Position numbers and translations under genes: made by a program. The notes below the pieces were generated by a model. The model was not told the DNA's origin, searched no databases, and was given only the letters and a program-made list of their open reading frames with translations. Source: Candidatus Omnitrophota bacterium (GTDB lineage: Bacteria; Omnitrophota; Gorgyraeia; Gygaellales; Gygaellaceae). From it: a stretch of 64,000 nt of DNA. The DNA lies in contig JAGYNB010000002.1 in NCBI GenBank assembly GCA_018400015.1, positions 180,555 through 244,554 on the forward strand, in the 5' to 3' direction. Shown here one piece after another: positions 8,034 through 36,046 of this stretch (positions are counted from its first letter, which is position 1; every line of letters begins with the position of its first letter).

Positions 8034-8060
8034 TAACACATTAAACAATTGGAGTTAAAA

Positions 8061-9146: not shown

Positions 9147-9155
9147 AAAAATGTA

Positions 9156-9938: not shown

Positions 9939-9943
9939 TTATT

Positions 9944-10507
9944 ATGCGAGTTATTGAACAATCAATAAATGATTTTAAAAGAATTATAAGAAAAAGCGGT
10001 TTTGATTTTTCTCTTATCGATAAAAATAAACTGTTAACAGTTTCTATCGTTGCTGTTTCGTTATTATTATTTGAGAGTAGTTTTTTGGAGTGGTTTAAGA
10101 TTTTTGGCGTGAGGCCTAATTTGGCTGTATGTTTTATTGTTTTATTAAGTTTTACCCAAAAACCCGCAGTTAGTTTATCAATGGTATTGTTGGCAGGTAT
10201 TATTAAAGACAGTTTTTCCGGATTTGTTTTCGGAATGAACACGGTTAGTTTTTTTATCACAATGATCCTTTGTCTTGAGGTAAAGAAAAAACTTTTTGCG
10301 CAGAAAATCGGTATATTTATTTTTATGGCTTTTCTGGGTATATGGATTTCTTTTTTGTTTTTTTGTTTTTATTCTTTGATTTATGAGTTAGATTGCAACT
10401 TTACTAGATTTTTTTGGGTTGTTTTTGTCGAATCGTTGTATAGCTCGCTGATATTTTTTCCGATATTGAAATATTTAAAAAAATGCGTACCCGAAATGTT
10501 TACTTAA
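9944..10507 (+). CDS. mreD: rod shape-determining protein MreD
   Basis: Small polytopic membrane protein following mreC; hydrophobic profile typical of MreD. Confidence 0.7.
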   Translation: MRVIEQSINDFKRIIRKSGFDFSLIDKNKLLTVSIVAVSLLLFESSFLEWFKIFGVRPNLAVCFIVLLSFTQKPAVSLSMVLLAGIIKDSFSGFVFGMNTVSFFITMILCLEVKKKLFAQKIGIFIFMAFLGIWISFLFFCFYSLIYELDCNFTRFFWVVFVESLYSSLIFFPILKYLKKCVPEMFT

Positions 10508-15063: not shown

Positions 15064-15092
15064 TTGACAAATAATAGATTATGAAATATAGT
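15064..15092 (+). promoter_or_regulatory. sigma70-type promoter heading the pilus/c-di-GMP locus (TTGACA-17-TATAGT)
   Basis: TTGACA 15064-15069, 17-nt spacer, TATAGT 15087-15092 (alternative TATAAT at 15093-15098); AAGGAGG RBS at 15114-15120; ATG at 15129. Confidence 0.6.
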
Positions 15093-15128
15093 ATAATTAT
15101 ATAATCATAATTTTAAGGAGGCATTTAT

Positions 15129-16529
15129 ATGATTAAGCTATTTAAGAAAACGTCTATTTCTTCCAGGGGATTGCGTAGCAAGTTAGCCGTTGCTTTTGCG
15201 TTAACCTCGACCATTCCAATTCTTATAAGCGTTTATCTGATTTCACAAATTACCGATGTTTCCACTTTGGATTTACGTATCGGTTCATTTTTGATTTTGA
15301 GCCTTCTTATTGCTGTTTTTGGTTATTTTGTCTTAAACAACATAATCAATTCCATTATAAAAACTAGCAAAAAAGCTAATGCTTATATACAAGGCCAGAC
15401 TTTTGGTGGAATAAAGATTTCAACCGATGATGAGATTTCCGATTTGAATAAGGCTATTGATAAACTTAATGACCGTATAAGGGAAAATATGGAAAAGTTA
15501 AGTTTTTATGATAAGCAAACTAAGCTAGTCGGTATGGATTTGAATAAGAAAGTAATCGCTCTTTCAAGTCTATTGCAAATCGGTAGTTTTATTTCTTCGA
15601 GCAATAAAATTGATGATATTTTTTCTTTGGTTGTAGGAAAACTTTCGAATATTGAGCCAAGTTTTGAAGTATTCTTGTTTTTGGAGAATAAAAATAATGA
15701 GTTTTCTCTCGATTTTGCTTCGAATCAGGAAAAGATTAAATCTAATGTATTTACTTTATCCAGCGATTCAAAAAGAATTGTTCAGGCAATAACCAGCAAC
15801 GAACCTTTAAGATTGGATATTTCTCATTCTGAGTCTAAGACTTTAGAGCGTTTAGGAGAAATATTCAACATCAGTAGTATAGTTATTTTTCCTATTTTTG
15901 CTTGCGAACAGACAAAAGGGCTCCTAATTGTCGCTAGCACAAAAAACGATTATGCTTTTGAGGCAGGCGATATTGAACTTATAAGGTTATTTGCCCGTCA
16001 GCTTGCAATAGCTTTGGAGAAGAACCAGCTTTTTAACAAAGCGAAGAAATTGGAGACAAAAGATGAATTAACTGGTTTATACAACGAAAGTTTTATTCGA
16101 GATCGTCTAAATGAAGAGATAAAACGCGCTTTTGTTTCCCAGAGGCCGTGTTCTTTTGTTCTTTTCGGAGTGGATAAATTCCAGAATTACCTGCAGCGAA
16201 AAGGTCAGGACGGGGCGGAAGTTTCTTTAAAACATATTGCTTCTTTATTGAAAGAGTCTTCTCGGGAAATTGACAAGCCTGGTCGTTTTGGGTATTCTGA
16301 CTTTGCATTGTTATTGCCGGAAATGAATAAAAAGGAAGCGATTAATCTTGCGGAAGAGATCAGGAACAAGGTTGCTTTTGTTTTTAAAGAAGAAGACGCT
16401 GGTCTTCGTCTGACAATTTCAGCTGCTGTCAGTGAAAATCCGATTGATGGGATAAAAGCCGAAGAATTGATTTCCCATGCAAGAAATCTTTTATCGAATA
16501 AAGATTCAGACAATAAGGTTTTTCGCTAA
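15129..16529 (+). CDS. membrane-anchored GAF-like + degenerate GGDEF domain protein (PelD-like c-di-GMP receptor candidate)
   Basis: Two N-terminal TM helices and a HAMP-like linker; GGDEF-domain start LTGLYNESF; signature degenerated to GYSDF; RxxD I-site retained (REIDKPGRFGYSDF). Confidence 0.6.
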   Translation: MIKLFKKTSISSRGLRSKLAVAFALTSTIPILISVYLISQITDVSTLDLRIGSFLILSLLIAVFGYFVLNNIINSIIKTSKKANAYIQGQTFGGIKISTDDEISDLNKAIDKLNDRIRENMEKLSFYDKQTKLVGMDLNKKVIALSSLLQIGSFISSSNKIDDIFSLVVGKLSNIEPSFEVFLFLENKNNEFSLDFASNQEKIKSNVFTLSSDSKRIVQAITSNEPLRLDISHSESKTLERLGEIFNISSIVIFPIFACEQTKGLLIVASTKNDYAFEAGDIELIRLFARQLAIALEKNQLFNKAKKLETKDELTGLYNESFIRDRLNEEIKRAFVSQRPCSFVLFGVDKFQNYLQRKGQDGAEVSLKHIASLLKESSREIDKPGRFGYSDFALLLPEMNKKEAINLAEEIRNKVAFVFKEEDAGLRLTISAAVSENPIDGIKAEELISHARNLLSNKDSDNKVFR

Positions 16530-16984: not shown

Positions 16985-18715
16985 ATGGCAACATTAAAAG
17001 AAAACTTAACCAATATTCTTATCGATAATAACCTTATTACGCGTGAGAATTTGGAAAAGGCTATTACTACACAAAAAAAACAAGGTGGTAGTCTTAGTCA
17101 GATACTTATAGATTCTGGTTTCGTAAAAGAAAAAGATTTGGTTATTGCCTTAAGCCAAGGTTTAGGAATCCCACCGATAAATTTAAATAAGATAAAAATA
17201 GATAAACAAGTTGTAAAACTTATTTCTCAAGAAGTAGCGCAGCGTTATCTTATTTTGCCTATTTCTCAAGTCGGCGCGACTTTAACCGTTGCCATGGCAG
17301 ATCCTTTGAATGTTTTTACTTTGGACGATTTGAAAACCCTTACGAGTATGAAGATCAATCCTGTTATAACTACTGCTAATGATATTAAGGATGCGATTAA
17401 GAATTATTATGTAGACGATCAAAAGCAGGAAGATGCAAAAATCGACGATATCATCAAGGATATTTCTACTGCGGATATAGAGCTGGTTAAAGAGTCCGAG
17501 GATAAGGAAGAGAACATAAGTTTTATGCATATGGTCGATGATGCACCTATTGTAAAAATCACCAATAGGTTCCTTAGCGATGCAGTTAAGCTCAATGCAA
17601 GCGATGTTTTGTTCGAACCGTTTGAAAAGACAACGCGTGTAAGATGTCGCGTTGACGGCGCATTAAGAGAAATAGAAACTCTTCCCAAATATATGCATGA
17701 AGCAATAGTGTCTCGTACTAAAGTTATTTCTGGGCTTGATATCTCAGAACATAGGCTTCCTCAGGACGGGCGTTTTAAGATAAAATTCCAGTCTCGAGAG
17801 GTTGATTTTAGAATTTCTATTCTGCCGTCGGTTTTCGGAGAAAAAGTTGCTTTGCGTGTTTTGGATAAAACAACCGCAATGCTTGATATTGAGAAACTTA
17901 ATTTTTCAGAGCATAATCTTAATATCCTCAAACACTGTTCTTCTTTTCCGCACGGTATGATGCTTGTTTGCGGTCCTACTGGTTCAGGTAAGACCACTAC
18001 ACTTTATTCCATTCTTAAATATGTGGATAGCCCTGAAAAAAATATTGTTACCGTAGAAGACCCTGTTGAATATCAGCTTCATGGAGTAAATCAAGTGACT
18101 TGTCGGCCTGATATCGGCCTGACATTTGCTGCAGCACTGCGTTCCATATTAAGGCAAGACCCCGATATAATAATGGTTGGTGAAATTAGGGATTTTGAGA
18201 CTTTGGATATTTCCATAAAATCAGCTCTTACCGGACACATGGTTTTAAGTACGCTTCATACGACGACAGCTCCCGGTTCAATTATCAGAATGTTGAATAT
18301 GGGCGCGGAACCTTTTTTGGTTACGTCCTGTGTAGTTGGTGTTATTGCTCAAAGGTTAGTGCGCAAGTTGTGTCCAAAATGTAAAGAAGCATATAAACCT
18401 TCTAAGGCAGTCTTAGATACTTTAAGTGTTGCCGGGGATATTAAAGAAAGCGTTACTTTTTATCGGGCAAAAGGTTGTCCGGAATGTTTTAATATAGGTT
18501 TTCGCGGAAGGCTGGCAATATGCGAAGTGCTTGTTTTGACACACGAAGTTAAAAATTTGATTTTAAAACGGGCGCAGGAGCATCAGATTAAGAAGATGGC
18601 TCGTTCGCAGAGCATGCGAACTTTAAGAGAAGACGGTATTGATAAAATAATTGCTGGTTTAACCACACCGGAAGAGGTATTAAAGGTTACCGCTTCTGAC
18701 GTAAAGGCAGAATAG
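16985..18715 (+). CDS. pilB: type IV pilus assembly ATPase PilB/GspE family (paralog 1)
   Basis: GspE_N domains, Walker A GPTGSGKTT, Asp box, Walker B, His box, tetracysteine CPKC...CPEC zinc site; 576 aa. Confidence 0.85.
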   Translation: MATLKENLTNILIDNNLITRENLEKAITTQKKQGGSLSQILIDSGFVKEKDLVIALSQGLGIPPINLNKIKIDKQVVKLISQEVAQRYLILPISQVGATLTVAMADPLNVFTLDDLKTLTSMKINPVITTANDIKDAIKNYYVDDQKQEDAKIDDIIKDISTADIELVKESEDKEENISFMHMVDDAPIVKITNRFLSDAVKLNASDVLFEPFEKTTRVRCRVDGALREIETLPKYMHEAIVSRTKVISGLDISEHRLPQDGRFKIKFQSREVDFRISILPSVFGEKVALRVLDKTTAMLDIEKLNFSEHNLNILKHCSSFPHGMMLVCGPTGSGKTTTLYSILKYVDSPEKNIVTVEDPVEYQLHGVNQVTCRPDIGLTFAAALRSILRQDPDIIMVGEIRDFETLDISIKSALTGHMVLSTLHTTTAPGSIIRMLNMGAEPFLVTSCVVGVIAQRLVRKLCPKCKEAYKPSKAVLDTLSVAGDIKESVTFYRAKGCPECFNIGFRGRLAICEVLVLTHEVKNLILKRAQEHQIKKMARSQSMRTLREDGIDKIIAGLTTPEEVLKVTASDVKAE

Positions 18716-18717
18716 TT

Positions 18718-20439
18718 ATGGTTAAGTCTTTAAGGGACAAGATTCTTGATTATTTATTGGAAGAAAAGAGGATTAGCAAAAGCGATATCGAACGGTTTTC
18801 TAAACTTCAGGAAAAGAGTAATCTTAAGATGGAAACTATTCTTATCGATAATGGTATTATTTCTGCCCAGGAGTATTTATCCATGCTGGCAAGGGAAACC
18901 AATACACCTGTAGTTTGTCTTGAGAGGATTGAGTGTGATCCGGAGATTTTAAATATTATACCGGAAAGAATATGCCAACAGTATAGTATTTTTCCTGTTG
19001 CCAAACTGGGGAATTTACTTACTTTGGCTATGTCTGACCCGATGAATATTTTTGCCATGGACGATATTAAGTCTTTAACATCTTTTGAAATTAATACGGT
19101 TTTAGCCAGCGAAGAAGATATTAAGAAAAACATACAGTTTTGGTATGAGGAATCAAAGAATAAAGATATATCCGAGTTGATTGGAGAGGTCAGCGAAGAA
19201 GAGATCAACGTTGTTGGTGAAATTAAGAAAAGGGAAATTGAAGGACAGTTTGATCTTGACAGGGCAATGTTTGAAGCTGAAGAATCTCCTGTTATCAAGC
19301 TGGTTAACCTTATGCTTAGTGAATCTTACCAGAAAAGGGCTTCGGATATTCATATTGAACCAGAAGAAGATTTTTTAAGGGTGCGCTATAGAATTGACGG
19401 TATGCTGCATGACGCTTACCAGATTCCCAAAGAAAAGCAGAATGCTGTAATCACGCGTATAAAGATAATGTCCAATCTGGATATTACTGAGTTTAGAATT
19501 CCTCAGGATGGCCGTTTTAAGATCCGTTTAGGGCAAAACGAAGTTGATTTCCGTGTATCAATTTTACCGATTAGTTTTGGGGAAAAGGTAGTTATGCGTT
19601 TGTTGGATAAACGTAATCTTTCTATTGGTCTGGAGAAATTAGGATTTTTAGCTGAGCCAATGCAGAAATTCAAAGATTGTATTAGTAAGCCATACGGAAT
19701 GATTCTTGTAACAGGGCCTACAGGGTCGGGAAAATCAACTACGCTTTATTCAATTATTAACCAGCTTAACACGTCCGCAACTCATATAATTACCGTAGAA
19801 GACCCTGTTGAGTATCAGATTGAAGGTATAGCGCAGATTCCGGTTAAGGCGGATATCGGTCTTACGTTCTCTGCTGGGCTTCGGGCGCTTTTGCGTCAAA
19901 GCCCTGATATTATCTTAATCGGTGAGATCAGGGATTCCGAAACTGCCGATATTGCCGTTAAGGCATCTCTCACCGGGCAGATGGTTTTATCGACGCTTCA
20001 TACCAACGATGCTGCAGGAGCAATAACCAGACTTATCGATATGGGCGTTGAACCGTTTTTGGTTTCTTCGAGTTTAATCATGACTTGTGCTCAGCGATTA
20101 AGTAGAAAAATATGTTCAAACTGTAAAGAAGAATATACGCCCGATCCAACGGTAGTAAAAAATCTTGGAATAAAATTGGAAAAAGACTCTGTTTTTTATC
20201 ACGGAAGAGGATGTTCTCATTGCAATAATACGGGTTATCGTGGTAGAATAGGGACAATAGAGGTTTTGGTAATTGATGATAAGATCAGAGAGATGATAAT
20301 CAAAAGAGTCTCATCTGATGAAGTCAGAGAATATGCCGTAACTCAAGGCATGGAGACATTAAGGGATAATGGCCTGCGTCAGGCAGCAATTGGTCTTACG
20401 ACCTTAGAAGAGGTTTTAAGAATCACTTCAGAGGAATAG
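18718..20439 (+). CDS. type IV pilus assembly ATPase PilB/GspE family (paralog 2)
   Basis: Same architecture as paralog 1: Walker A GPTGSGKSTT and CSNC...CSHC zinc site; 573 aa; has an N-terminal domain, so not PilT-like. Confidence 0.85.
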   Translation: MVKSLRDKILDYLLEEKRISKSDIERFSKLQEKSNLKMETILIDNGIISAQEYLSMLARETNTPVVCLERIECDPEILNIIPERICQQYSIFPVAKLGNLLTLAMSDPMNIFAMDDIKSLTSFEINTVLASEEDIKKNIQFWYEESKNKDISELIGEVSEEEINVVGEIKKREIEGQFDLDRAMFEAEESPVIKLVNLMLSESYQKRASDIHIEPEEDFLRVRYRIDGMLHDAYQIPKEKQNAVITRIKIMSNLDITEFRIPQDGRFKIRLGQNEVDFRVSILPISFGEKVVMRLLDKRNLSIGLEKLGFLAEPMQKFKDCISKPYGMILVTGPTGSGKSTTLYSIINQLNTSATHIITVEDPVEYQIEGIAQIPVKADIGLTFSAGLRALLRQSPDIILIGEIRDSETADIAVKASLTGQMVLSTLHTNDAAGAITRLIDMGVEPFLVSSSLIMTCAQRLSRKICSNCKEEYTPDPTVVKNLGIKLEKDSVFYHGRGCSHCNNTGYRGRIGTIEVLVIDDKIREMIIKRVSSDEVREYAVTQGMETLRDNGLRQAAIGLTTLEEVLRITSEE

Positions 20440-25145: not shown

Positions 25146-26351
25146 ATGGCTCAGTTTAAATATTATGCAAAAGATAAAAAAGGAGCTTCTGTTAATGGTG
25201 TTTTGGAAGCAGAGAATAAGAATGTTGTTATCGAAGAGTTAAGGCGCAGACAGTTAACGATAATTTCCTTAAAGGAAGCAAAAAAAGCATTCAGTATCGG
25301 AGGTCCAAAGAAAGTCAGCGCTGATGATCTGGTAATTTTCTCTAGACAATTATCCACAATGGTAAATTCCGGTATTCCTTTGGTGCAGTCATTGGATATT
25401 TTAGGTGAACAGCTTGAGAATAAAGAGTTTCGTTCGATAATTATGACCATAAGAGACGATATCCAGACTGGCCTCAGTCTTTCCGGTGCGTTTGCAAAAC
25501 ACCCCAAGGTTTTTTCAACACTTTATATCAATATGGTCAAAGCCGGCGAGACTTCCGGTATGCTCGATGAAATATTAGACAGGCTGGCAATATATCTGGA
25601 AAAATCCAATTCTTTGAAGAAGAAAATAAAATCGGCCATGATTTATCCTGCTTTGGTTTTTAGCATGGCGATTATTATTACTTCAGGATTGTTGATTTTC
25701 GTTGTTCCTCAGTTTAAATCTATTTTTAGCTCTTTTGGAGGTAAACTTCCGTTGCCAACACAGATTTTGATTGCCATAAGCGATAATTTCTCAAAGATAG
25801 TACCTGCTTTGATTGTAATGTTGATCCTTGCCGCAGTTATATTTTCGCGTGTTATTAAAACGCCTAAAGGAAGATATAAGTTTGATCAGTTCAAATTAAA
25901 GGTATTTATTTTTGGCAAGATGTTTCAGATGGTTGCGGTCAGTAGATTCTCTAGAACGCTTTCGACTTTGGTAAGAAGCGGTGTTTCCATTCTTACAGCT
26001 TTAGATATCGTTTCCAAGACAACGGGGAATAAAGTTATTGAGCAGGCGTTAGATAACGTAGGTACTAATATAAAAGAAGGTAAATCTATTGCGTTGCCGT
26101 TAGCGGAAGCAAAGATATTTCCTCCTATGGTTGTAAGGATGATTTCCGTAGGCGAACAGTCCGGAGAACTGGAGAAGATGTTGTCAAAAATCAGTGATTT
26201 TTATGATGAACAGGTGGATATTGCCGTATCGGGCTTATCCAGTGTAATCGAGCCTGTAATTATTATATTCTTGGGTGTTGTGATCGGTTCTATCGTTATC
26301 GCTATATTTTTGCCGATTTTGAAGATGTCTTCTCTTGTTGGGGGCATGTAA
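25146..26351 (+). CDS. pilC: type IV pilus inner-membrane platform protein PilC (GspF family)
   Basis: Two T2SSF repeats and three TM segments; 401 aa; RBS GAGAAAGGA. Confidence 0.85.
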   Translation: MAQFKYYAKDKKGASVNGVLEAENKNVVIEELRRRQLTIISLKEAKKAFSIGGPKKVSADDLVIFSRQLSTMVNSGIPLVQSLDILGEQLENKEFRSIIMTIRDDIQTGLSLSGAFAKHPKVFSTLYINMVKAGETSGMLDEILDRLAIYLEKSNSLKKKIKSAMIYPALVFSMAIIITSGLLIFVVPQFKSIFSSFGGKLPLPTQILIAISDNFSKIVPALIVMLILAAVIFSRVIKTPKGRYKFDQFKLKVFIFGKMFQMVAVSRFSRTLSTLVRSGVSILTALDIVSKTTGNKVIEQALDNVGTNIKEGKSIALPLAEAKIFPPMVVRMISVGEQSGELEKMLSKISDFYDEQVDIAVSGLSSVIEPVIIIFLGVVIGSIVIAIFLPILKMSSLVGGM

Positions 26352-26356
26352 GAGGC

Positions 26357-26824
26357 ATGAGAAAAAGTTTTTCTCTAATTGAGTTAGTGTTTGCTCTTGG
26401 AATATTGGGTCTTGTAGCAGCGACTTTCATGATGAGTTTTGCCAATTATTCTAATCTTAATGAGACCAATATTAATGTTAACCTAGCATATATAAAGGCC
26501 CGTTCGGTTGTTGAAGAATTGCGTTCCATCGATGATTCAGATGAAGGAGATTTAAAGACTGCGAAGGATAGCTGTGGTACTGAAAAATTAGTAGAAAACG
26601 GTCTTTTGGAAGGAGTTGGCCAGCCTGACACAGGGATTTATTCAGTGTATCTGAAGTGTCTAAGGGATGCAGGCGGGTCGTGTCTTGACAGGACATTTGA
26701 TGTAACGGTATCATTGTGTTGGGTGCAGTCAAACGGAAGAGTAATTGGCGAAAGGGATTCTGATAACGAAGAATGCGAAGATTCTATCTATGAATATACC
26801 AGCAGTTTTACCACTGCTAAATAA
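26357..26824 (+). CDS. type IV pilin-like protein (major pilin candidate; atypical Ser at position -1)
   Basis: N-terminus MRKS/FSLIELVFALGILGLVAA with Glu+5, hydrophobic alpha1-N helix, Cys-rich C-terminal region; 155 aa. Confidence 0.6.
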   Translation: MRKSFSLIELVFALGILGLVAATFMMSFANYSNLNETNINVNLAYIKARSVVEELRSIDDSDEGDLKTAKDSCGTEKLVENGLLEGVGQPDTGIYSVYLKCLRDAGGSCLDRTFDVTVSLCWVQSNGRVIGERDSDNEECEDSIYEYTSSFTTAK

Positions 26825-26827
26825 AAG

Positions 26828-27445
26828 ATGATTTCTAAAATTAAGCTTTTTTCCAGAAAAGGTTTCAGCATACTGGAGTTGATTACGGCGATTGGGATTT
26901 TTTCGTTTTTGACCATATTTTTATTTTCCGGGATTATTACCGTGCGCAATATCTGGCTTAAGTCTTCTGCAAAGATAAAATTGGTTGATGAAGGGATGAA
27001 TGCTTTAAGCGTTATGAAATCAGAATTAGCCCAGTCAGGCAGGGATTATTTTAAGATTACGAATTCAGCTAGCGATTATTGCGCCAACAATGATACTAAT
27101 ACCGGGAGTTTGATTATTTTTCCTGTACCGATTTTAATTAGTGGTAAATATCATGATATCAACGGATCAATTAATTGGGGATATGACGGCGATACGAATA
27201 AAAAAATTCGCTATAGAGTCTATGATAATAAGCTTTTTCGTGAGATAGCAGATACGTCTTCAAGCTCTTGCGATACTATCGAGAGCAAAGTATTAGCTTA
27301 CAATATGGATAGCGACTCGCCTGTTACTTTTGAGTATGATACCGGCAGTCACACGATAGCACTAACTATTAATTTAGAAGATAGGGATTTTGCGAGTAAT
27401 GAAGTTGATTTAAGCCTGGAAGAGATTATTTACCCGGAAAATTAA
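26828..27445 (+). CDS. prepilin-type N-terminal cleavage/methylation domain protein (minor pilin or pseudopilin)
   Basis: Canonical G/FSILELITAIGIFS prepilin motif with Glu+5; 205 aa. Confidence 0.65.
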   Translation: MISKIKLFSRKGFSILELITAIGIFSFLTIFLFSGIITVRNIWLKSSAKIKLVDEGMNALSVMKSELAQSGRDYFKITNSASDYCANNDTNTGSLIIFPVPILISGKYHDINGSINWGYDGDTNKKIRYRVYDNKLFREIADTSSSSCDTIESKVLAYNMDSDSPVTFEYDTGSHTIALTINLEDRDFASNEVDLSLEEIIYPEN

Positions 27446-27458
27446 GAAGGTGTGACCT

Positions 27459-29906
27459 ATGAAAAATAAAAAAGGAATTGCAATAATCGTGACATATTCT
27501 ATATTGGTGCTTTTGTTGATTTTATCCGTTGCGTTTATGTACCAAAGTATTAATGCTAATTATTTGAGCAAAAGAAGAGTTTCAAATAACAAAGCGCGCG
27601 CCAATGCAGAAAAAGGCATTGCGCTCATAAAAAGAGAGCTTGGTTTTAGAAGCCAGAGCAATCCGTTGATCACGCATTCAGTTAACGCTTCCACAGACGC
27701 CTTAGAAAGTAATAATATCAATCCTTCATTACATGTACCAGGTGTTTCCATATTTAATGACGACAGCCAGCCTGATATAGACGGTTGTTTCAATGGCTAT
27801 GATGACGATTCAAATCTTATTTTTAGGGTTAAAACATTCAATAAAGAAAGTTCTTCAGGGGATGTGGTTATTATCAGTCAGGGCATTGACGCAGATAGCA
27901 AAGCATATTTGGCTTCCACGCTTAGTTCTTCCAGTCTTTACCAATATTTTATGTTTTATGAAGGTAAGACATATTTTTTTGGTTCAACTAATATAGACGG
28001 TAAAGGTATAGGAAAGATATTTGTCAATGGTGATGCGGGTTTTACCAGTCCCCAGCTTAAAGATTTGGCTAGTTTTGAAGTTGCCGGAGACATGAGCAAT
28101 TATTATTACGGGTATCTTAATCCCTCTATTTTGGATAGTTTAGCTGCAGACGGCCCTGGTATCACTAACGGTGCTCCCACCCCTTGTCTTTATGTGGATA
28201 CATCTGTTGCCGACCCTGATTATGACTATAGCGATCCCGCTAATCCCGCCAAGCATGATTTTAATGGCGATGGAGTGGTTAATTATAAGGATTGGATATA
28301 TTCTCCTGCTGACCCTCAACCGTGGAACGATAATTCAAGTGCTTATGCCCGGTTTCAGCCGTATACAAGCACTCCTTATGAATGGCGTGACATAGATACG
28401 CATTTTTATAATCCGTCTGGTTTCGGTGACCAGTTTATTTTTACTTCAGAAAGCGGAGCAGTTTCTGATTATGGTTTTAATCTTCCCGGCAACGGAGACG
28501 AATCTGCACTATCAACTTCTTGGGACTTTAATTTATTTGGCAGTGCTTCCAGTTATGATGATATAACCTGGCAGTATTATGATTACCAGACCGGTACGAT
28601 TAAAGCTGCGGACAGTGACTATTGGGATTTTGTAGAGGATAGGTATGGTTTGGAAATTCCTGATTATTTAAGGAATTTAGGTAGTGTTGAAACGCAGTCT
28701 GTCAATTATCTGAATACGGAAAAGCAGCCTGAGTGGCAGTCTTGGCTTGACGGTAAATCAATATCAATGGATGACGGTAGTACTAAAACCTTAGGTGAAA
28801 TAATTAAAACCGACCAGGATTCGATCACCCAGCCCGAGGTAAGCACTTATTATTATGATTTGGCTAATGATCCGGCAACAGGAATATATATAAATCCTGC
28901 GCAGTTGATTAATGGAACTGTTACCGATGAAAAAGTCCAGAAATTAATCGATGAGCAATGTATTACAGTCACGCAGTTTTATAATAATGTTTATCCGGCT
29001 TATGATAAAAAAGGAACAACCAATAATCCAGAAGACGATATTACTTATCCTGAGAAGTCAGTAAAAATTGATGTTGCCTGCGTAAAGGCTTTATCTGATG
29101 ACGCTTCAGATTCAGTGAAAGCTAATATTATTTATGTCGAAGGGGTAAAAACTTCCGTACAGGGCCAGGAATGGGATAATACGCCCGCCGCCGGAGAATA
29201 TAAAAATCTTCCTGTTTCTACGCTGTTGGTTAATGGCGAAAGCGTTCCCGAAGGGGGCTTAACTGTAGTTGCCCCTTATCAGGTATATGTAAAAGGAAAT
29301 TTTAATACTGTTGATCCCCAGTCGTCATCGGTTATCACAAATTCATATTATTATGCAATTTCTGATAATTATCAGGATTATGGAACTGACAGGGAGAGTA
29401 TTGCCTCGACATGCAGTGGGGATTTTTATGATTCCAATTGCGACGGCCCGCAGCATTTGCCAGGACTTTATGATTATTATACAGACATATACGGGAAAGT
29501 AGGCGCTTTGGAATATCCCTATGAAGCAAATGAGGCAGTGAATTATCCGGGTAAAAATAATCCTGAAGTCAATGGCGGTAACTATGACGGTAATTTTACT
29601 CAAAGAATATCTTTAGTCAGTCCTAATCCGTCAGTTTATTTTATTGGCAGAGGCTCAGGCACTTTGAATCGGATTGGTTCGATTATTGAGTCTAAAAGTT
29701 GGGGAGCTTATTATACTCCAGGTGCGTATGATCGCGGCAGGGTCAATTACGGTAATCCTATTGGTAGGTACAGTTCACTTGGATTAAAACAAGCTTACGA
29801 TACAATGCTGGAAACAGACAAACCTCCGGGTGATTACAGCGGCACCTCTAGCGGTTTGTTTGTTGAGGTATCGGAAAATGATTTTTTAGTTAATACTAAA
29901 TTTTAA
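27459..29906 (+). CDS. large PilX_N-domain pilus-associated protein (putative tip or adhesin protein, PilY1-like role)
   Basis: N-terminus KKGIAIIVTYSILVLLLILSVAF resembles PilX_N; 815 aa rich in D/N/Y/G/S; contains an EF-hand-like loop DFNGDGVVNYKD (about 28257-28292). Confidence 0.55.
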   Translation: MKNKKGIAIIVTYSILVLLLILSVAFMYQSINANYLSKRRVSNNKARANAEKGIALIKRELGFRSQSNPLITHSVNASTDALESNNINPSLHVPGVSIFNDDSQPDIDGCFNGYDDDSNLIFRVKTFNKESSSGDVVIISQGIDADSKAYLASTLSSSSLYQYFMFYEGKTYFFGSTNIDGKGIGKIFVNGDAGFTSPQLKDLASFEVAGDMSNYYYGYLNPSILDSLAADGPGITNGAPTPCLYVDTSVADPDYDYSDPANPAKHDFNGDGVVNYKDWIYSPADPQPWNDNSSAYARFQPYTSTPYEWRDIDTHFYNPSGFGDQFIFTSESGAVSDYGFNLPGNGDESALSTSWDFNLFGSASSYDDITWQYYDYQTGTIKAADSDYWDFVEDRYGLEIPDYLRNLGSVETQSVNYLNTEKQPEWQSWLDGKSISMDDGSTKTLGEIIKTDQDSITQPEVSTYYYDLANDPATGIYINPAQLINGTVTDEKVQKLIDEQCITVTQFYNNVYPAYDKKGTTNNPEDDITYPEKSVKIDVACVKALSDDASDSVKANIIYVEGVKTSVQGQEWDNTPAAGEYKNLPVSTLLVNGESVPEGGLTVVAPYQVYVKGNFNTVDPQSSSVITNSYYYAISDNYQDYGTDRESIASTCSGDFYDSNCDGPQHLPGLYDYYTDIYGKVGALEYPYEANEAVNYPGKNNPEVNGGNYDGNFTQRISLVSPNPSVYFIGRGSGTLNRIGSIIESKSWGAYYTPGAYDRGRVNYGNPIGRYSSLGLKQAYDTMLETDKPPGDYSGTSSGLFVEVSENDFLVNTKF

Positions 29907-29917
29907 ATAGGCATTTA

Positions 29918-30571
29918 ATGGCGCAAATAAATTTACTACAGACGAGAGCGGTTTTAAAAACTAAAAAAGCAAAGGCGGATAAAGGTGCTGCCAGCGCTAA
30001 GAAGTTTTCTTTTGACTTTAAAATTGACTTTCGCAGGATGCCCAGGTGGTTTTTTGCCATTGCCATAGGCTGGATTGTTTTTTTGGCACTTGGTGAAACG
30101 ATAATGATTTTAAAGTTAAATGATTCCAAGCGAAAACTAAAGATCCTTGAAACAGAAGGCAGTTTTTTTTCAAAAAGCCCCAAAGAGATAGAGGATTTAA
30201 AAAAGAAGAAAAAAAGCCTTCAGGACGCCTTAGGAATTATCGAAGGATTTCTGATTACCAAAACGCCTTTTTCACAGGCGCTTAATATTATAAGTGATCA
30301 GATAATTGACGGGGTTTGGCTTGAGAAGATATTTTTTAATTCCAAGAAAATCGGTAAAGACAAAGAAGAGATCACTATAAAAATAAACGGTAAAGTTTAC
30401 TCGGCAATCTCGCAAGAGCAGATAGATATATTGGGACAGTTTTCCAATGGTTTAAAAAATAATCCTTATTTTGAATTATTGTTTAGCAGTTTGCAGGTTG
30501 GTAATCTTAAAAATGTAGATTATATGGGATTTGATGTTTTGGATTTTGAAATGGAGGTATCTTTAAGATAA
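29918..30571 (+). CDS. pilN: type IV pilus assembly protein PilN-like
   Basis: N-terminal INLLQTR (INLLP-type) motif, single TM segment, periplasmic coiled-coil plus ferredoxin-like region; 217 aa. Confidence 0.7.
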   Translation: MAQINLLQTRAVLKTKKAKADKGAASAKKFSFDFKIDFRRMPRWFFAIAIGWIVFLALGETIMILKLNDSKRKLKILETEGSFFSKSPKEIEDLKKKKKSLQDALGIIEGFLITKTPFSQALNIISDQIIDGVWLEKIFFNSKKIGKDKEEITIKINGKVYSAISQEQIDILGQFSNGLKNNPYFELLFSSLQVGNLKNVDYMGFDVLDFEMEVSLR

Positions 30572-30575
30572 TATT

Positions 30576-31157
30576 ATGGACTTTGATATTAAAAGAATTA
30601 TAGAATGGGTTAAGTTTAGGAAAGTGGAAGTTTCTATTCTTGCGGGGTTATTTGTTATTGGCCTAATATTATCATTTTTGCTATTTCAACCACAGGCGAG
30701 AAAAATCCAGGAATACAATAATTCCTTAATCTCAAGCTCTAAGGATACAAGCAATCTGCGTACAGCGCAAGTAGAATTAAACGAGTTAAAAAAAGAAATT
30801 ACTGTTATTGAAGAGACTTTAGCAGAACATGAAAAAAAACTCTTTTCTCAGGAAGATACTCAGGCATTTTTAAATTATATAAACAGGCTCGCGAAGTTTT
30901 ATAACGTGCGCATTCTAAAGATCAATCCTTTATCACAGGTTGAAAACGAAGTTAAGTCTTTGGATAAGGTGTATCTGGCAATGCCTTATCGGTTGAGTTT
31001 AACCTGTAGCTATCATAATCTAGGGAAATTCCTGAATAAACTTGAGCAGTCAAAGGATAGTTTTGTAAGGGTTGATAGTTTGTCTATACAGGCCGACAAC
31101 AGCAATATGAGAGAGCATAAAGTGGAGTTAGGGATAACTATTTTTTCCATTAAATAA
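30576..31157 (+). CDS. pilO: type IV pilus assembly protein PilO-like
   Basis: Single N-terminal TM segment then coiled coil; size and position between pilN and pilP. Confidence 0.6.
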   Translation: MDFDIKRIIEWVKFRKVEVSILAGLFVIGLILSFLLFQPQARKIQEYNNSLISSSKDTSNLRTAQVELNELKKEITVIEETLAEHEKKLFSQEDTQAFLNYINRLAKFYNVRILKINPLSQVENEVKSLDKVYLAMPYRLSLTCSYHNLGKFLNKLEQSKDSFVRVDSLSIQADNSNMREHKVELGITIFSIK

Positions 31158-31158
31158 T

Positions 31159-31545
31159 ATGAAAAAGATAATTTTATTAATTATGTTTTTGAGTTTCTCA
31201 ATAATTGCTAGTGCCAGTGAAAATGATTTTGAACAAAGGCTTAATTTTGTGTATAATGATAATAATAAGCGCGATCCGTTTATCCCTTTACTTGATAAAG
31301 ACGGGTTGCGACCAAGATCGGATTTATTTGAGAAAGCTGAACTTCCGATAAAAATTGATCTATCAGGTATTGTCTGGAATAAACAAGTGCAATTTGCTAT
31401 AATTAATGGTAAAATAGTGAAAGAAAATGAAGAAGTTACAAGAGGTCTTACTTTAGAAAAAATTAATTCTGATAACGTGGTTTTAGAGTATGGAGGAAGA
31501 AGTACTAAGGTGTATATAGGAGGCCCTAAGAAGGATGATAAGTAG
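31159..31545 (+). CDS. pilP: type IV pilus assembly protein PilP-like
   Basis: Signal peptide, conserved RDPF motif (NKRDPFIPLL), C-terminal beta domain; 128 aa. Confidence 0.6.
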   Translation: MKKIILLIMFLSFSIIASASENDFEQRLNFVYNDNNKRDPFIPLLDKDGLRPRSDLFEKAELPIKIDLSGIVWNKQVQFAIINGKIVKENEEVTRGLTLEKINSDNVVLEYGGRSTKVYIGGPKKDDK

Positions 31546-33100
31546 TAAAAGAATAAAGTTTATATTTGTTTTTTTATTGTGCTTAGGTGTTTGTATATAT
31601 ACACTTAACGCAGAAGAGTTTAATCCTGCTGAGTTTGGCCAGGAAGGATTTGATCCTGCTTTTCAGGCAGTGCCACCTATTCAAACCGCACAAGTTATCA
31701 AAAAAGATAGCGTTCAAAAGCAGGAAGAGGAAATTCCAGCCAAAGAACAAGCTTTTGAGGCAGGTGGGGTTTACAACAATGAGGATTTTGTGAATTTGGC
31801 TTTTGACAATGCCGATATCCGCGATGTTATAAAAGTTTTAGCTGCAAGAAGCGATATGAATATTATTGTCGGTGAGGGTGTTCAAGCAAATGTTACCATG
31901 AAGCTAAAAGATGTAATTTGGGAGTCAGCCCTGGAATTAATCCTAAATACGTATAATCTTACCTATCAAAAAGAAGGCAATCTTATTAGAGTTATGACGC
32001 TTACTGAATCTGAAGAGGAAGCGAAGAAAATTCCAATGATAACTAAGATCATTCCGCTTAATTTCGCACAAACTCCTGAAATGTCCGCTTCCATTGCCAA
32101 GATGCTTTCTGCAAGAGGGTCTGTACAGGAAAATGTACGTACGAATACATTGATTATCACCGATATCCCTTCGCGCGTTAAGATGATAGAAGAGACGATT
32201 ACGAAACTTGATACACCTACACCCCAGGTTTTAATCGATGTTTTGATTATGGATATCACCTTAACCGATAGCGATGATCTGGGTGTTGACTGGCAGGCAA
32301 TCACGACAAACCAGTTATCAGATTTAAGCAGTGCCAATAGAACAAAGTCGGTCACTTTAGAGCAGCCATCAGGCATGTCTACAACAGGCGGTATTGCAGG
32401 AGATCCGGCATTTACGCTGGCTCTTGTTAAAAAGTTTGGTGAAGCTAATTTTACTGCTAACCTGCAGGCATGGATAGAAAATAAAGAAGCCAAGGTTTTG
32501 GCAAATCCGAAGATTTTAACGCTTGATAATCAGGAAGCTAAAATCGAAATAATAAATCAGTTTCCATATCTGCAGACTTCAAGTTCGACTGACGGCGGCA
32601 GCACTAGCGGAACAGAATATAAAAATATAGGAACTAGCCTTAGCGTAACAGCGCATATTACTAATGACGGACATATTACTTTAAATTTAAAACCGGAACA
32701 GGATATAAATGCCGGAACCGACTCTACAACCGGTGCGCCTATTGTTGATACCCGTTCTGCCGAGACCAATGTTTTGGTAAAAGATGGCCAGACCGTTGCC
32801 TTGGGCGGTTTAAGGCGTGTTGATAAGTCTACTACTATAAGCAAAGTACCTATTTTGGGGGATATTCCGTTTATCGGCAAGATATTCCAGAATAGGCAAA
32901 TTGACGACAAGGACGTTGAACTTGTAATGTTTGTTACTCCTCATATCATAAAGGATGCTGGCATAACTGATAAAGAAAGAATGTACATAAAAGAAAATCT
33001 TCCTGGTCCACAAAGGCCTTTTTTGCGCAACAAGCCCTTTGTTTTAGAGGAAAAATACGATTTAAGGTCCCCTTCATATAAAACTAAAGGGAGTAAATAA
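31535..33100 (+). CDS. pilQ: type IV pilus secretin PilQ (short form, no AMIN domains)
   Basis: Signal peptide, N0/N1-type domains, C-terminal secretin domain (VLANPKILTLDNQEAKIEI...GGLRRVDKSTTISKVPILGDIPFIGKIFQ). Confidence 0.85.
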   Translation: MISSKRIKFIFVFLLCLGVCIYTLNAEEFNPAEFGQEGFDPAFQAVPPIQTAQVIKKDSVQKQEEEIPAKEQAFEAGGVYNNEDFVNLAFDNADIRDVIKVLAARSDMNIIVGEGVQANVTMKLKDVIWESALELILNTYNLTYQKEGNLIRVMTLTESEEEAKKIPMITKIIPLNFAQTPEMSASIAKMLSARGSVQENVRTNTLIITDIPSRVKMIEETITKLDTPTPQVLIDVLIMDITLTDSDDLGVDWQAITTNQLSDLSSANRTKSVTLEQPSGMSTTGGIAGDPAFTLALVKKFGEANFTANLQAWIENKEAKVLANPKILTLDNQEAKIEIINQFPYLQTSSSTDGGSTSGTEYKNIGTSLSVTAHITNDGHITLNLKPEQDINAGTDSTTGAPIVDTRSAETNVLVKDGQTVALGGLRRVDKSTTISKVPILGDIPFIGKIFQNRQIDDKDVELVMFVTPHIIKDAGITDKERMYIKENLPGPQRPFLRNKPFVLEEKYDLRSPSYKTKGSK

Positions 33101-34980
33101 TGAGGAAAAAGTTCTTATTAATTTTTACTTTTTTTATTTTAAGTTTTTCTTTGAATTATTCCTTTGCCCAAGATCAAAATCCTCTTCTTGGTGAAGAAGA
33201 ATTGATATGGCAAAAAAACGTTAGCGGCATAAAAGATGCAGTGAAAGATTTAATTAACGAAAACAAGAACTTAAAGCAGCAAATTGAGTTAAGGTCTTTA
33301 GAGATGCACAAACTTAATGAAATCATGAAGACCTTGCAGGAAAAGAACGAAACACTTCAGCAAAAAATCGAATCAACTGACCTTAAAGTTAATTTAAACA
33401 GCAAAGTAAAGTCTCTCGTCCAGCGCGCTGATTCATTAGAAAGCGTGAAAGCCTCGCTTGATGAAGAGGTAAAACAGCTCAGAGAGGAAAATAAAACTTT
33501 AAAAAGAGACTCCGCGGCATTTGAAAAAGAGCTCAACACGTTAAGAAAAAAACTTGAAGCTACGGAAGATGAACTTAAACAAATGAATGATTCTTATGGC
33601 AATTTTAAGCAAAAATCTCTTGATTACGAAAAAGAGCTTGAGGGCAAACTTGTTAAATTAGAGTCTGATAATAAAAGATTTAGCGCGGCAGCTGAAGAAA
33701 ATGAGAAGTTGTCAACTCAGCTTAATGAAATAAAACAAGATCTTGAAAGTTCTCAGAAAGAAATCGGTGAATTAAAAAAATCTTTAGCGGCCAAGGACAA
33801 GATAATTGGATTCAGTAAGGATGAGCTTAAAAAAATCGAGCTTTTATCCAGCGAGTTAGGAAAAAGTGAAAAAGAAGTAGTTGATTTGAGAAAACAGTTG
33901 AATGAGTCCAATAAAAATTTAGAGATTGCCAATAAAGAGATTGGATTGCTTAATGAATCGTTCAATAAATTCAAAGAAAAATCAGCTGAATATCAGGAAA
34001 AACTGATCAAAGCCCAGAAAGAGAATATAGATTTAGAAAGCAGGATCGCTCCTTTGCAAGACGACTTAAAAAAAAAGATTTTAGAGATTGAAAATGTTAA
34101 GTCTGGTTATGAAAACCAGATTTCATTGTTAAAGACTCAAAATTCCGCATTAGAAGACAGAATCGCATTTTTTTCTCAAGAGATTACCCAGTTAACGGCT
34201 GAAAAAAGAGAATTAGAATCCTCGATGGCCAAGTTAAAGTCTAGAATCGAACCTCTAGTGAGCCCTTTTAAAGAAGAGATTCGTCAAAAAGACTACGAGC
34301 TCGATAGAATCAAGTCTAATTACGAAAAAGATTTAAGTAAGATTAAGGAAAATAATTCTTCTTTGAATGATAGAATAGATTCTTTGAGCGGTTTTATCGC
34401 TCAGGCAAATGCTGAAAAAAGACTTCTTGAACAAGAGTTTTTAAATATGCAGGACAAGCTTAAGTCTCTGGAGCAGGAAAAAGATCTTGCCTTAAGAAGA
34501 TCTGTTATGGTCAGCGATGCCCGTAAAACAAAACAAATTAGAACTGCTTCTGTTTATTCTGATTCCAAACAGAAGGATAATGGTTTTCAAATACCTGAAA
34601 GCGTAAAATTAAGGGCATTAAAACAGGCAGAGAATAAATTAGGCAGTTTTACAAAACAGGATTCGACAGCTATAGGGGCGATGCTTGAAACTGCTTATGA
34701 TTATGCGTTTGGTGGTCAGATTAAATTGGCAATAAAAGAATATGCCAATGTTTTAGAGATTGATCCCGGGAACAAAGACGCCTTGTTTAACCAGGGGGTA
34801 ATTTATCTTAATGCCAATGATTCTAGACGTGCAGTTGTTAACTTTGAGAAGCTCATAGAATTAGATCCCAATGACGAACAGGCATTATATAATTTGGCTT
34901 TATGTTACAGTAAGCTTCATAATAAAAAACAGATGGAATATTATTATTTAAAATATTTGGAATTGGAAAATGGCTCTTGA
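33100..34980 (+). CDS. secreted coiled-coil protein with C-terminal TPR repeats (pilus-associated; PilF/FimV-like role possible)
   Basis: Signal peptide MRKKFLLIFTFFILSFSLNYSFAQ, about 450 aa of continuous coiled coil, 3-4 C-terminal TPR motifs. Confidence 0.55.
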   Translation: MRKKFLLIFTFFILSFSLNYSFAQDQNPLLGEEELIWQKNVSGIKDAVKDLINENKNLKQQIELRSLEMHKLNEIMKTLQEKNETLQQKIESTDLKVNLNSKVKSLVQRADSLESVKASLDEEVKQLREENKTLKRDSAAFEKELNTLRKKLEATEDELKQMNDSYGNFKQKSLDYEKELEGKLVKLESDNKRFSAAAEENEKLSTQLNEIKQDLESSQKEIGELKKSLAAKDKIIGFSKDELKKIELLSSELGKSEKEVVDLRKQLNESNKNLEIANKEIGLLNESFNKFKEKSAEYQEKLIKAQKENIDLESRIAPLQDDLKKKILEIENVKSGYENQISLLKTQNSALEDRIAFFSQEITQLTAEKRELESSMAKLKSRIEPLVSPFKEEIRQKDYELDRIKSNYEKDLSKIKENNSSLNDRIDSLSGFIAQANAEKRLLEQEFLNMQDKLKSLEQEKDLALRRSVMVSDARKTKQIRTASVYSDSKQKDNGFQIPESVKLRALKQAENKLGSFTKQDSTAIGAMLETAYDYAFGGQIKLAIKEYANVLEIDPGNKDALFNQGVIYLNANDSRRAVVNFEKLIELDPNDEQALYNLALCYSKLHNKKQMEYYYLKYLELENGS

Positions 34981-36046
34981 TCAAAAAGGTTTTTTAGGCA
35001 TAGGCAGTAGTCTTTTCAAGCAAAAAGAAAAGAATTTTGTAGGTATTGATATCGGTTCATCAAGCATTAAGATTGTAAGGCTTGTTCCGAATAGAGATAA
35101 TAAGAAAATGCAGTTAAGTGATTTTGCCGATATTGCTTTTGAAGAACAGGTCAGCACCGATCAAATAAAACGCGCGGTTGATGAAGCTTTAAAGCAAACC
35201 AATATTCCTAAAGATAGCGAAGCAGTTTTTAATATCCCCAATAATTCTGCCATAACCCGTTTTATAGTAATGCCGAAGATGAATCATGACGACCTGAGAA
35301 AAGCCATTGGTTATGAACTTGAAAAATACATTGCTTTTGATACAAAAGAGGCTGTTTATGATTTTCGTATTTTGGATGACCTGCAGACTAAAGAAGGCCA
35401 TTTAAAAGTTCTTTTGGTTATTACAAAGAAAGAGACTGTTGATGAAAGGGTAAAGGCGATCGAAGATGCAGGGCTTATTCCTAAAGTGGTAAGTATTGAT
35501 TCTGTTGTTATTCCTAATACATTTTATCTTAATCATATAGATAAAAAAGATAAGAATATCGCCATAGTAAACCTTGGATCTCGGCTATGCAGTATCAGTG
35601 TTGTTAAAGGCGGAATATCCAACTTTATGCGTGATATAGCAATTGGAATAGAAAATATAGTAAGTTTGGTTTCGGAAAAACTGGAAATGAACAAAACTGA
35701 TATTATTAATTCTATTATGAAACCTGAATTGCAGTCTAATGATTTTAAAGATATTATTAATTCAGTTTTGTCTAATTTGTTGAACGAACTTTACCTTTCG
35801 TTCGATTATTACGAGACGCAGTTCGAAACTTCTATTGACGAGATTTATATTACCGGCGGACTTTCTCAGCAGCCGGGTTTGATTGACTTTTTATCCAGTA
35901 ATTTAGGTATATCAGTTAATAAACTTAATCCCCTATTGAATCTTGAAGTTGCTGCCGAATTGAAGTCCAAGATTGATTCAAAGAAGGATATTATGGCTGT
36001 AAGCATAGGTCTTGCCTTAGAGGAATCCGATCTAAAATATTTTTAA
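34970..36046 (+). CDS. pilM: type IV pilus assembly protein PilM (actin-like ATPase fold)
   Basis: FVGIDIGSSSIKIVRL N-terminal ASKHA phosphate-1 motif, PilM_2 domain organisation; 358 aa. Confidence 0.8.
   Translation: MALDQKGFLGIGSSLFKQKEKNFVGIDIGSSSIKIVRLVPNRDNKKMQLSDFADIAFEEQVSTDQIKRAVDEALKQTNIPKDSEAVFNIPNNSAITRFIVMPKMNHDDLRKAIGYELEKYIAFDTKEAVYDFRILDDLQTKEGHLKVLLVITKKETVDERVKAIEDAGLIPKVVSIDSVVIPNTFYLNHIDKKDKNIAIVNLGSRLCSISVVKGGISNFMRDIAIGIENIVSLVSEKLEMNKTDIINSIMKPELQSNDFKDIINSVLSNLLNELYLSFDYYETQFETSIDEIYITGGLSQQPGLIDFLSSNLGISVNKLNPLLNLEVAAELKSKIDSKKDIMAVSIGLALEESDLKYF

Follow-up and report, generated by a model that had tools for sequence, protein, structure and literature searches.

A degenerate GGDEF protein family encoded at the head of type IVa-like pilus clusters in Omnitrophota, and the sporadic occurrence of its I-site arginine

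Degenerate GGDEF proteins that act as effectors on machines of the cell envelope are a known kind, represented by PelD, FimX, BcsE, PopA and CdgA, and the function of such proteins is usually guessed from survival of the RxxD motif of the inhibitory site (I-site). The Omnitrophota are ultra-small, partly predatory or parasitic bacteria, in which pili are thought to be central to host contact. Among the systems that can be compared with ours, FimX, whose dead GGDEF domain reads GDSIF, controls the extension ATPase PilB by way of a small adaptor bound to the N-terminal domain of PilB (PMC8389850, PMC11656802), and in PelD the binding of cyclic di-GMP (c-di-GMP) requires a third arginine (P. aeruginosa R402, B. 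cereus R395) no less than RxxD (PMC7112168). The MshEN domain is an established route of c-di-GMP control over type IV pilus extension (PMC5013675, PMC11656802); binding by this domain depends most on hydrophobic, Gly and Gln positions, and changes of the first-position Arg shift affinity by fivefold at most (PMC5013675). A 2024 review of PilB cofactors includes MshEN, PilZ and FimX and no GAF-GGDEF protein. The present report concerns a gene that begins at position 15129 of a 64,000-nucleotide stretch (the window) of Candidatus Omnitrophota contig JAGYNB010000002.1, the membrane-anchored GAF-GGDEF protein which this gene encodes (the query protein), and the family to which that protein belongs.

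We compared the active site and the I-site of the query protein with those of PleD, for which residue equivalences were taken from an ungapped phmmer alignment of the 2 proteins. The PleD motif GGEEF is aligned to GYSDF in the query, and the PleD motif RAID to REID. PleD residues D327, N335 and D344, of which, by established work on PleD, the first binds metal and the other 2 bind guanine, correspond to G347, L355 and E364, respectively. Of the residues that act at the I-site of PleD in addition to RxxD, the secondary-site R313 is matched by R333, and the third Arg, R390, is replaced by E410. Neither GG[DE]EF nor A/SGDEF with the catalytic acidic residues is present in the query, nor is the D327/N335/D344 set, and every score of the protein against the NCBIfam equivalog models is far under the cut-off of that model. 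As the metal-binding, guanine-binding and GG[DE]EF residues are gone, the domain cannot be a canonical cyclase, and on the residues present we take the query protein to be a catalytically dead pseudo-diguanylate cyclase (pseudo-cyclase).

Two database searches together with a scan of GTDB species genomes yielded 284 unique relatives of full length (432-490 aa). Of the database proteins, one from Candidatus Gygaella obscura, also a member of the Omnitrophota, is the closest, with 85% identity. Where they are labelled, the family members all come from Omnitrophota metagenome-assembled genomes (MAGs), with some third-party annotation (TPA) bins titled Planctomycetes. The genome scan used the pattern FAx[VIL]LPE[KR]NK and provided 80 loci for family-wide counts of synteny and sites; the query reads LPEMNK at this position, which is why its own clade is missing from the 80 scanned loci. 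In its architecture, its length and its gene slot, between a rodA/radical-SAM gene and the MshEN/pilB genes, the query protein agrees with the family as we define it (~430-490 aa). We found no description of this pseudo-cyclase family in the searchable literature on Omnitrophota with pili or GGDEF proteins.

The canonical D327, N335 and D344 set was observed in 0 of the 284 family members, and [GAS]G[DE]EF is kept in only 47 of them, the pentapeptide at the active site (A-site) being highly variable with about 60 variants. Since no member has the canonical active-site set, the combination of lost residues varying from one relative to another, the whole family is a pseudo-cyclase family. We observed also that the guanine-binding pair is replaced fairly uniformly and non-randomly, the D344 position being Glu in 265/284 and the N335 position Arg or His in 185/284. 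In the family alignment the mean frequency of the top residue is 0.63 for the dead GGDEF domain vs 0.43 for the GAF domain; residues R333, R339-P340-C341, R386, K401, P438, D440 and G441 of the GGDEF domain are invariant in the family, and the query has all of them. Also, no truncated members were seen among the relatives. By these measures of conservation the dead GGDEF domain is shown to be under strong purifying selection and not decaying.

The gene for this protein occupies a fixed place. Genes for MshEN/T2SSE proteins follow the family gene within 3 kb at all 63 GTDB-species loci that have enough downstream sequence, and a rodA or radical-SAM gene lies upstream at 55/57 species loci. At 30 loci the sequence reaches 8 kb downstream, and among these the stand-alone MshEN1 gene was present at 30, PilC at 28 and 2 PilB-size ATPases at 27; a PilT-like gene stands directly after the pseudo-cyclase gene at 13, and a STAND cyclase is encoded at 6. 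Metagenome loci at 33-52% identity exhibit the same coupling to pilus genes. These observations show that the family gene is the conserved first gene of a type IVa-like pilus cluster across Omnitrophota. In the window itself, where an earlier note on this DNA (made by reading the letters without database searches) had placed the gene at the head of a pilus operon, the genes from 15129 to 36046 indeed lie close together: the intergenic distances range from -11 to +13 nt, with a single exception of 68 nt before pilC. The operon encodes the type IVa set of PilB, PilC, PilM, PilO, PilQ and pilins with N-methyl motifs. PilQ, at 291.6 bits, passes the TIGR02515 cut-off of 284.35, and the scores of the 2 PilB paralogues (Table 1) are just below the equivalog cut-off of 675; genes for PilT and prepilin peptidase were not found in the query operon.

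The domain architecture given in Table 1 agrees with the earlier note, which had described 2 transmembrane (TM) helices, a HAMP-like linker, a GAF-like middle domain and a GGDEF domain with its active site decayed to GYSDF: hydropathy, Pfam and an AlphaFold2 (AF2) model bear out these parts, the HAMP-like linker through homologues and the AF2 model, and the decayed active site was found in the PleD alignment described above. The loop that joins the TM helices is ~10 residues long and lies outside, and there is no extracytoplasmic sensor domain. In the AF2 model (pLDDT 86.1), the 2 membrane-proximal helices are followed by a loop; a long helix (residues 102-156) then reaches the GAF domain, and another (residues 279-310) connects to the GGDEF domain. 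The predicted layout is that of a TM hairpin with a HAMP-like helix-loop-helix after it. Pfam HAMP gave no match in the query protein at E<=1, and is recorded for most of the homologues that are ~35-40% identical. That the middle domain is GAF-like, which the earlier note had named as one of the points on which its proposal could fail, is confirmed by scores above the cut-offs of Pfam GAF_2 (31.3 bits vs 28.6) and Pfam GAF (29.0 vs 22.4); also, the family profile matches GAF structures of phosphodiesterases (PDE) with E of 1e-12 to 1e-9. The GGDEF domain scores 80.5 bits (E 1.6e-22) against a Pfam cut-off of 23.8.

We next consider the I-site. In the query, REIDKPGRFGYSDF carries RxxD at canonical spacing from GYSDF, with CGG as the codon of R379. 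This motif had been described as a retained inhibitory site; its presence and spacing are as claimed, but its retention is not borne out. Among the 284 relatives, the residue at the Arg position is T in 168 and S in 60 (T or S, 228), whereas G is found there in 15 and R in 13; the full RxxD occurs in 12 (4%), and the consensus of the family reads [TS]xxD. Both the Asp and its spacing of five residues belong to the fold and are conserved throughout the family; the Arg is the only informative residue of the motif, and its presence in just 12/284 leaves the word "retaining" unsupported. In neighbour-joining trees of Kimura distances, the query clade (P0001-P0004) is monophyletic in 99/100 bootstraps for the full-length protein and in 154/200 for the GGDEF domain. 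When canonical GGDEF domains of the same operons served as the root, in no case (0/200) was the clade basal, as sister to all other members. RxxD is found in 4 separate places, namely the query clade (4 members), a second clade of six (100/100), and 2 singletons whose nearest neighbours carry S, T or I. A second search seeded with P0004 revealed the second RxxD clade and the RxxD singletons and produced no new members of the query clade, so that only P0001-P0004 are known among 5.8 billion proteins. The nested position of the query clade in the family speaks for a gain of the Arg and against its retention; given the imperfection of distance trees with distant outgroups, the Arg of RxxD is best read as a probable repeated secondary gain, made at least 4 times, on a slow-evolving site.

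These results bear directly on the explanation that stands nearest to the earlier note, namely that the protein acts in the manner of PelD, its dead GGDEF domain binding (dimeric) c-di-GMP at RxxD and thereby switching pilus biogenesis on. Such a role would accord with the canonical spacing of REID and its alignment with PleD RAID, with the invariance of R333 in the family, with the keeping of the Arg in all 4 query-clade members (to ~42% identity) and all 6 of the second clade, with the c-di-GMP-rich context of an operon that has a probable cyclase, and with the general resemblance to PelD of a membrane anchor, a GAF domain and a dead GGDEF domain. However, orthologues with and without RxxD share the same operon slot, and as the motif is present in ~4% of relatives, the I-site is probably not how the family works; to this must be added the nested position of the query clade. 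Also, we take the position of PleD R390 as the equivalent of PelD R402, the third Arg, on which c-di-GMP binding depends in both of the PelD proteins tested. In the RxxD-bearing relatives this position is never basic, the residues seen there being E, D, N, T, S and G. An arginine of the query, Arg412, is located 2 residues beyond Glu410, as counted on the PleD alignment and not on a direct alignment with PelD.

No sequence or fold affinity to PelD was apparent past the generic GGDEF and GAF folds. The PelD-specific family is absent from the Pfam matches of the query, and PelD is absent from 46 PDB sequence matches, from the best 60 family-profile matches and from the top 50 Foldseek matches; PleD (E 4e-31), DgcR, WspR, PadC, Dcsbis and even FimX rank ahead of it. 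The top Foldseek matches of the AF2 model are PadC (5llw), Dcsbis/PA2771 (4zmu), DosP, WspR and DgcR, and Foldseek aligns the GAF and GGDEF domains of the query to Dcsbis 4zmu over 320 columns. We found no specific relation to PelD, and the likeness is an analogy of domain content only; the statement that the protein mirrors PelD does not hold by descent. In the aggregate, we consider a PelD-like mode of action somewhat unlikely.

The better-supported c-di-GMP components of the operon lie in neighbouring genes. With the 53-residue NCBIfam model NF053729 c-di-GMP_motif (cut-off 38 bits), MshEN1 (52.7), PilB-1 (50.7) and the second stand-alone protein MshEN2 (55.9) pass, and PilB-2 (27.4) fails. 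The tandem PilB paralogues thus differ from each other in this motif, which suggests one putatively c-di-GMP-responsive motor and one c-di-GMP-blind motor. The double 24-residue motif of MshEN1, xLGxxLLxxGxIxxxxLxxxLxxQ-5-xIGxxLVxxGFAxxxxIxxxLxxQ, is kept across 75 orthologues, and the first-position Arg is replaced by Q, L or F in the MshEN domains of the operon. Possibly, the stand-alone MshEN proteins could be small c-di-GMP adaptors of the PilB motors, MshEN1 being a candidate for either a receptor or an adaptor. The 1388-aa protein has its DxD, N and D intact, its RxxD reads REQD, and its active-site motif is AGDEF, with RYAGDEF in all orthologues. AGDEF variants have been reported active, and this protein is likely to be the active diguanylate cyclase of the operon, one of unusual architecture. 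With 3 MshEN domains over the cut-off and an intact AGDEF protein, c-di-GMP control of the pilus is plausible. To that extent the broad idea of the earlier note, that c-di-GMP bears on this pilus, is supported, but judging from these motifs the control more likely runs via the MshEN domains and the AGDEF protein than via the pseudo-cyclase.

Table 1. Features of the pseudo-cyclase gene and of the pilus cluster that it heads (window positions; residues refer to the query protein)
Feature	Position	Strand	Details and basis
Sigma-70-like match TTGACA-17-TATAGT	15064..15092	+	11/12, top regional match; inside 93-nt gap after radical-SAM gene
Shine-Dalgarno AAGGAGG	15115..15121	+	7 nt ahead of ATG; read directly from sequence
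Pseudo-diguanylate cyclase gene	15129..16529	+	466 aa, ATG start; TM-TM-HAMP-like-GAF-coiled coil-degenerate GGDEF
Two transmembrane helices, residues ~19-40 and ~50-73	15183..15347	+	Hydropathy; AF2 helices 13-40, 47-87
HAMP-like helix-loop-helix, residues ~76-125	15354..15503	+	AF2 secondary structure and homologue annotation; diverged in query lineage
GAF domain, residues 161-297	15609..16019	+	Pfam GAF_2 and GAF above cut-offs
Degenerate GGDEF domain, residues 311-457	16059..16499	+	Pfam GGDEF; alignment to PleD
REIDKPGRFGYSDF, residues 379-392	16263..16304	+	RxxD (R379, D382) and decayed GG[DE]EF = GYSDF (388-392)
Stand-alone MshEN protein (MshEN1), 149 aa	16532..16981	+	Pfam MshEN; 2 nt downstream of pseudo-cyclase gene
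PilB-type ATPase 1 (PilB-1; MshEN + T2SSE)	16985..18715	+	Pfam; NCBIfam PilB 641 bits
PilB-type ATPase 2 (PilB-2; MshEN + T2SSE)	18718..20439	+	Pfam; NCBIfam PilB 633 bits
GGDEF(AGDEF)-STAND NTPase-HEAT protein, 1388 aa	20441..24607	+	Pfam GGDEF 4e-43, AAA_16, HEAT_2
Second stand-alone MshEN protein (MshEN2), 156 aa	24607..25077	+	Pfam MshEN
PilC/GspF platform protein and two N-methyl (pre)pilin-like genes	25146..27445	+	Pfam, NCBIfam
Rest of pilus cluster	27459..36046	+	815-aa protein, PilN-like, PilO, T2SSB/C-like, PilQ secretin, coiled-coil/TPR, PilM

Several observations on the surroundings of the gene should be recorded. The putative promoter listed in Table 1 is suggestive only, because promoter-like matches in the region (AT-rich, with 37% GC) number 7, as against 7.1 expected from shuffles. 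No terminator-like sites were seen between the upstream gene and the pseudo-cyclase gene. An antisense open reading frame (ORF) at 16205-16513 was rejected as a gene, as it has no support and sits within conserved coding region. The pilus cluster lies directly downstream of mreB-mreC-mreD-pbp2-rodA, often with a B12/radical-SAM gene following these (window ~8049-15035; loci L003, L005, L007 and L089), an order that was seen at 55 of 57 species loci, and such a fixed linkage of elongasome and pilus genes across the phylum is striking. The 815-aa protein (27459-29906), which has an N-terminal hydrophobic helix and no Pfam or NCBIfam match, is encoded between the pilin-like and PilN/PilO-like genes and might be an adhesin of the pilus tip or a minor pilin of large size. 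In one MAG, SO_2017_LW3_121, 3 contigs (L022, L047 and L064) each have a family gene in the same context, and these triplicate loci may represent a mixed bin or true paralogous pilus clusters. On the contig of P0004 (L088, 5433-5672), an ORF of 79 aa with a GIY-YIG nuclease domain is located between the 2 pilB paralogues. Past the cluster, at window positions 36444-38464, a phosphotransacetylase appears to be split into AAA_26/DRTGG (36444-37532) and PTA_PTB (37532-38464) genes, which are followed by acetate kinase.

The presence of a likely cyclase in the operon allows a further explanation, under which the dead GGDEF domain would pair with that of the AGDEF-STAND-HEAT protein or, in other genomes, with that of a REC-GGDEF protein, and set the local c-di-GMP level, either by poisoning its partner as a dominant-negative heterodimer or by tethering the partner to the membrane close to the pilus base. 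GGDEF catalysis requires 2 GGDEF domains, the fold of the query domain is intact and conserved, and the AGDEF-STAND gene is present both in the query operon and in the nearest operon relatives (L003, L007, L011, L017, L024 and L089). It is found at only 6/30 loci, however, with the pseudo-cyclase at all of them; modulation of this cyclase therefore cannot be the family-wide role, and we hold the explanation to be quite improbable. More doubtful still is the idea that the GGDEF domain is a functionless relic with RxxD present by chance, the protein acting via its TM/HAMP/GAF parts alone or not at all. Loss of the catalytic and I-site residues and the extreme variability of the A-site pentapeptide are what such a relic would exhibit, but the conservation of this domain exceeds that of the GAF domain, some of its residues are invariant across 284 sequences, and none of the members seen is truncated; a decaying relic, very improbable on these grounds, was rejected for the high conservation of the domain. 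Finally, that the protein is an active sensor diguanylate cyclase making c-di-GMP for the MshEN receptors, as source annotations of "diguanylate cyclase", strong GGDEF-family scores and the active cyclases among its closest structures might imply, has next to no likelihood and was rejected, the catalytic residues being absent (GYSDF, with G, L and E for D327, N335 and D344) and all NCBIfam equivalog scores falling short.

The explanation we favor, to which we give an even chance, is that the family is a conserved pseudo-cyclase serving as a sensory adaptor for the pilus motor. The protein would be a dimeric, membrane-anchored signal transducer, a fold that is backed by the 2 long helices of the AF2 model and by the cyclases among the Foldseek matches. 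A cue would be sensed by the membrane/HAMP module, or a small ligand would be sensed in the GAF domain, and the signal would pass down the coiled coil and rearrange the 2 dead GGDEF domains. [quoted passage not shown] The c-di-GMP input would be read mainly by the MshEN domains, and in operons of the query type the AGDEF-STAND-HEAT cyclase would supply c-di-GMP locally. The regained RxxD of the query lineage would be a secondary extra and not the basis of family function; possibly, it may add sensitivity to c-di-GMP, for instance through a cross-link by the ligand between the RxxD in one subunit and the invariant R333 in its partner.

Five considerations weigh against the adaptor proposal. Gene order and analogy are the whole basis of its output mechanism, and conserved order within one phylum may in part be general synteny, the cluster always following mreBCD-pbp2-rodA. 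The uniform replacement of the N335/D344 pair could signal that the former active site binds some unknown nucleotide, instead of a pure protein-interaction role. Also, the query clade is among the most divergent of the family, such that its function may differ from that of the family: the query departs from the consensus at 17/95 columns that are >=85% conserved, as compared with a family median of 4, which ranks it 7/284 in divergence, and its departures are mostly in the HAMP and GAF parts, with 7/17 in the HAMP-like region. Lastly, the constancy of the Arg within both RxxD clades (4/4 and 6/6) is compatible with selection and likewise with a general slowness of the site; as it looks like I-site selection, c-di-GMP binding may well occur in the query lineage.

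A bolder form of the adaptor proposal, which we think unlikely to be right in all its parts, would make the family an ancient, phylum-wide pseudo-cyclase that lost both catalytic and I-site residues and became a TM/GAF-sensing clutch acting on pilus motors via MshEN adaptors; together with the AGDEF-STAND-HEAT cyclase it would form a self-contained local c-di-GMP circuit, in which the I-site Arg re-evolved in the Gygaella lineage. If this regain is true, nature would here provide an example of an allosteric site for nucleotides that was lost and has evolved anew. If the adaptor model is true, the family would be a new type of PilB cofactor, and the dead cyclase, the stand-alone MshEN proteins and the STAND-type cyclase would constitute a compact c-di-GMP module that could be reconstituted in vitro though the organisms are uncultured. 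The family is in any event hard-wired to the Omnitrophota pilus machinery, and it illustrates how the RxxD shortcut can mislead, since a motif that was read from one sequence is, on our reading, a sporadic secondary gain in a family whose conserved role cannot depend on it.

When compared with known systems, the sequences and folds closest to the query are those of Dcsbis/PA2771 (GAF-GGDEF), PadC (phytochrome-GGDEF), DgcR, WspR and PleD. In these sensor-coiled-coil-GGDEF cyclases, as presumably here, a dimeric helical linker couples the sensor to the GGDEF pair; in contrast to the whole family of the query, they are active and have GG[DE]EF, D327, N335 and D344. With PelD the query shares an inner-membrane anchor, a cytoplasmic GAF domain and a dead GGDEF domain with RxxD, and both proteins are encoded in the operon of an envelope machine, over which control is presumed in our case. 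The 2 proteins differ in that the query has 2 TM helices with HAMP-like and coiled-coil linkers, whereas PelD is multi-TM with its GAF-GGDEF part directly attached; in that the query gene belongs to a pilus operon and not to a pel (pelA-G) polysaccharide operon; in that the essential third Arg of PelD would correspond, via the PleD alignment, to Glu; and in that RxxD is missing from 96% of the family of the query.

The receptors of the MshE/MshEN type (V. cholerae MshE, M. xanthus PilB and T. thermophilus PilF) are resembled by the 3 domains of the operon that pass the motif model, a likeness which concerns the neighbouring genes and not the pseudo-cyclase; 2 of these domains are stand-alone proteins of 149-156 aa, and the first motif position is Q, L or F instead of Arg. 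DmxA of Myxococcus xanthus is said to be a membrane GAF-GGDEF active cyclase that acts on pilus polarity, and CdgA/Bd3125 of Bdellovibrio is reportedly a soluble degenerate GGDEF protein that keeps its I-site and is needed for prey entry. Like our protein, these are GGDEF proteins, with or without activity, that sit at the membrane or the pole and have a part in behaviour that depends on type IV pili, in their case in predatory bacteria. Neither has its gene in first place of the pilus operon. The FimX-PilZ-PilB system of Xanthomonas and Pseudomonas provides a likeness in the presence of a dead-GGDEF protein beside a small adaptor and PilB, with the interaction in our case inferred. FimX, however, is a soluble REC-PAS-GGDEF*-EAL* protein that reads c-di-GMP by its EAL domain, and its adaptor is PilZ, whereas the locus described here has MshEN and no EAL or PilZ. 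The family thus differs from the known degenerate GGDEF effectors in its architecture, in the loss of both nucleotide sites from most of its members, and in its gene, which constantly comes first in a pilus operon that encodes stand-alone MshEN proteins.

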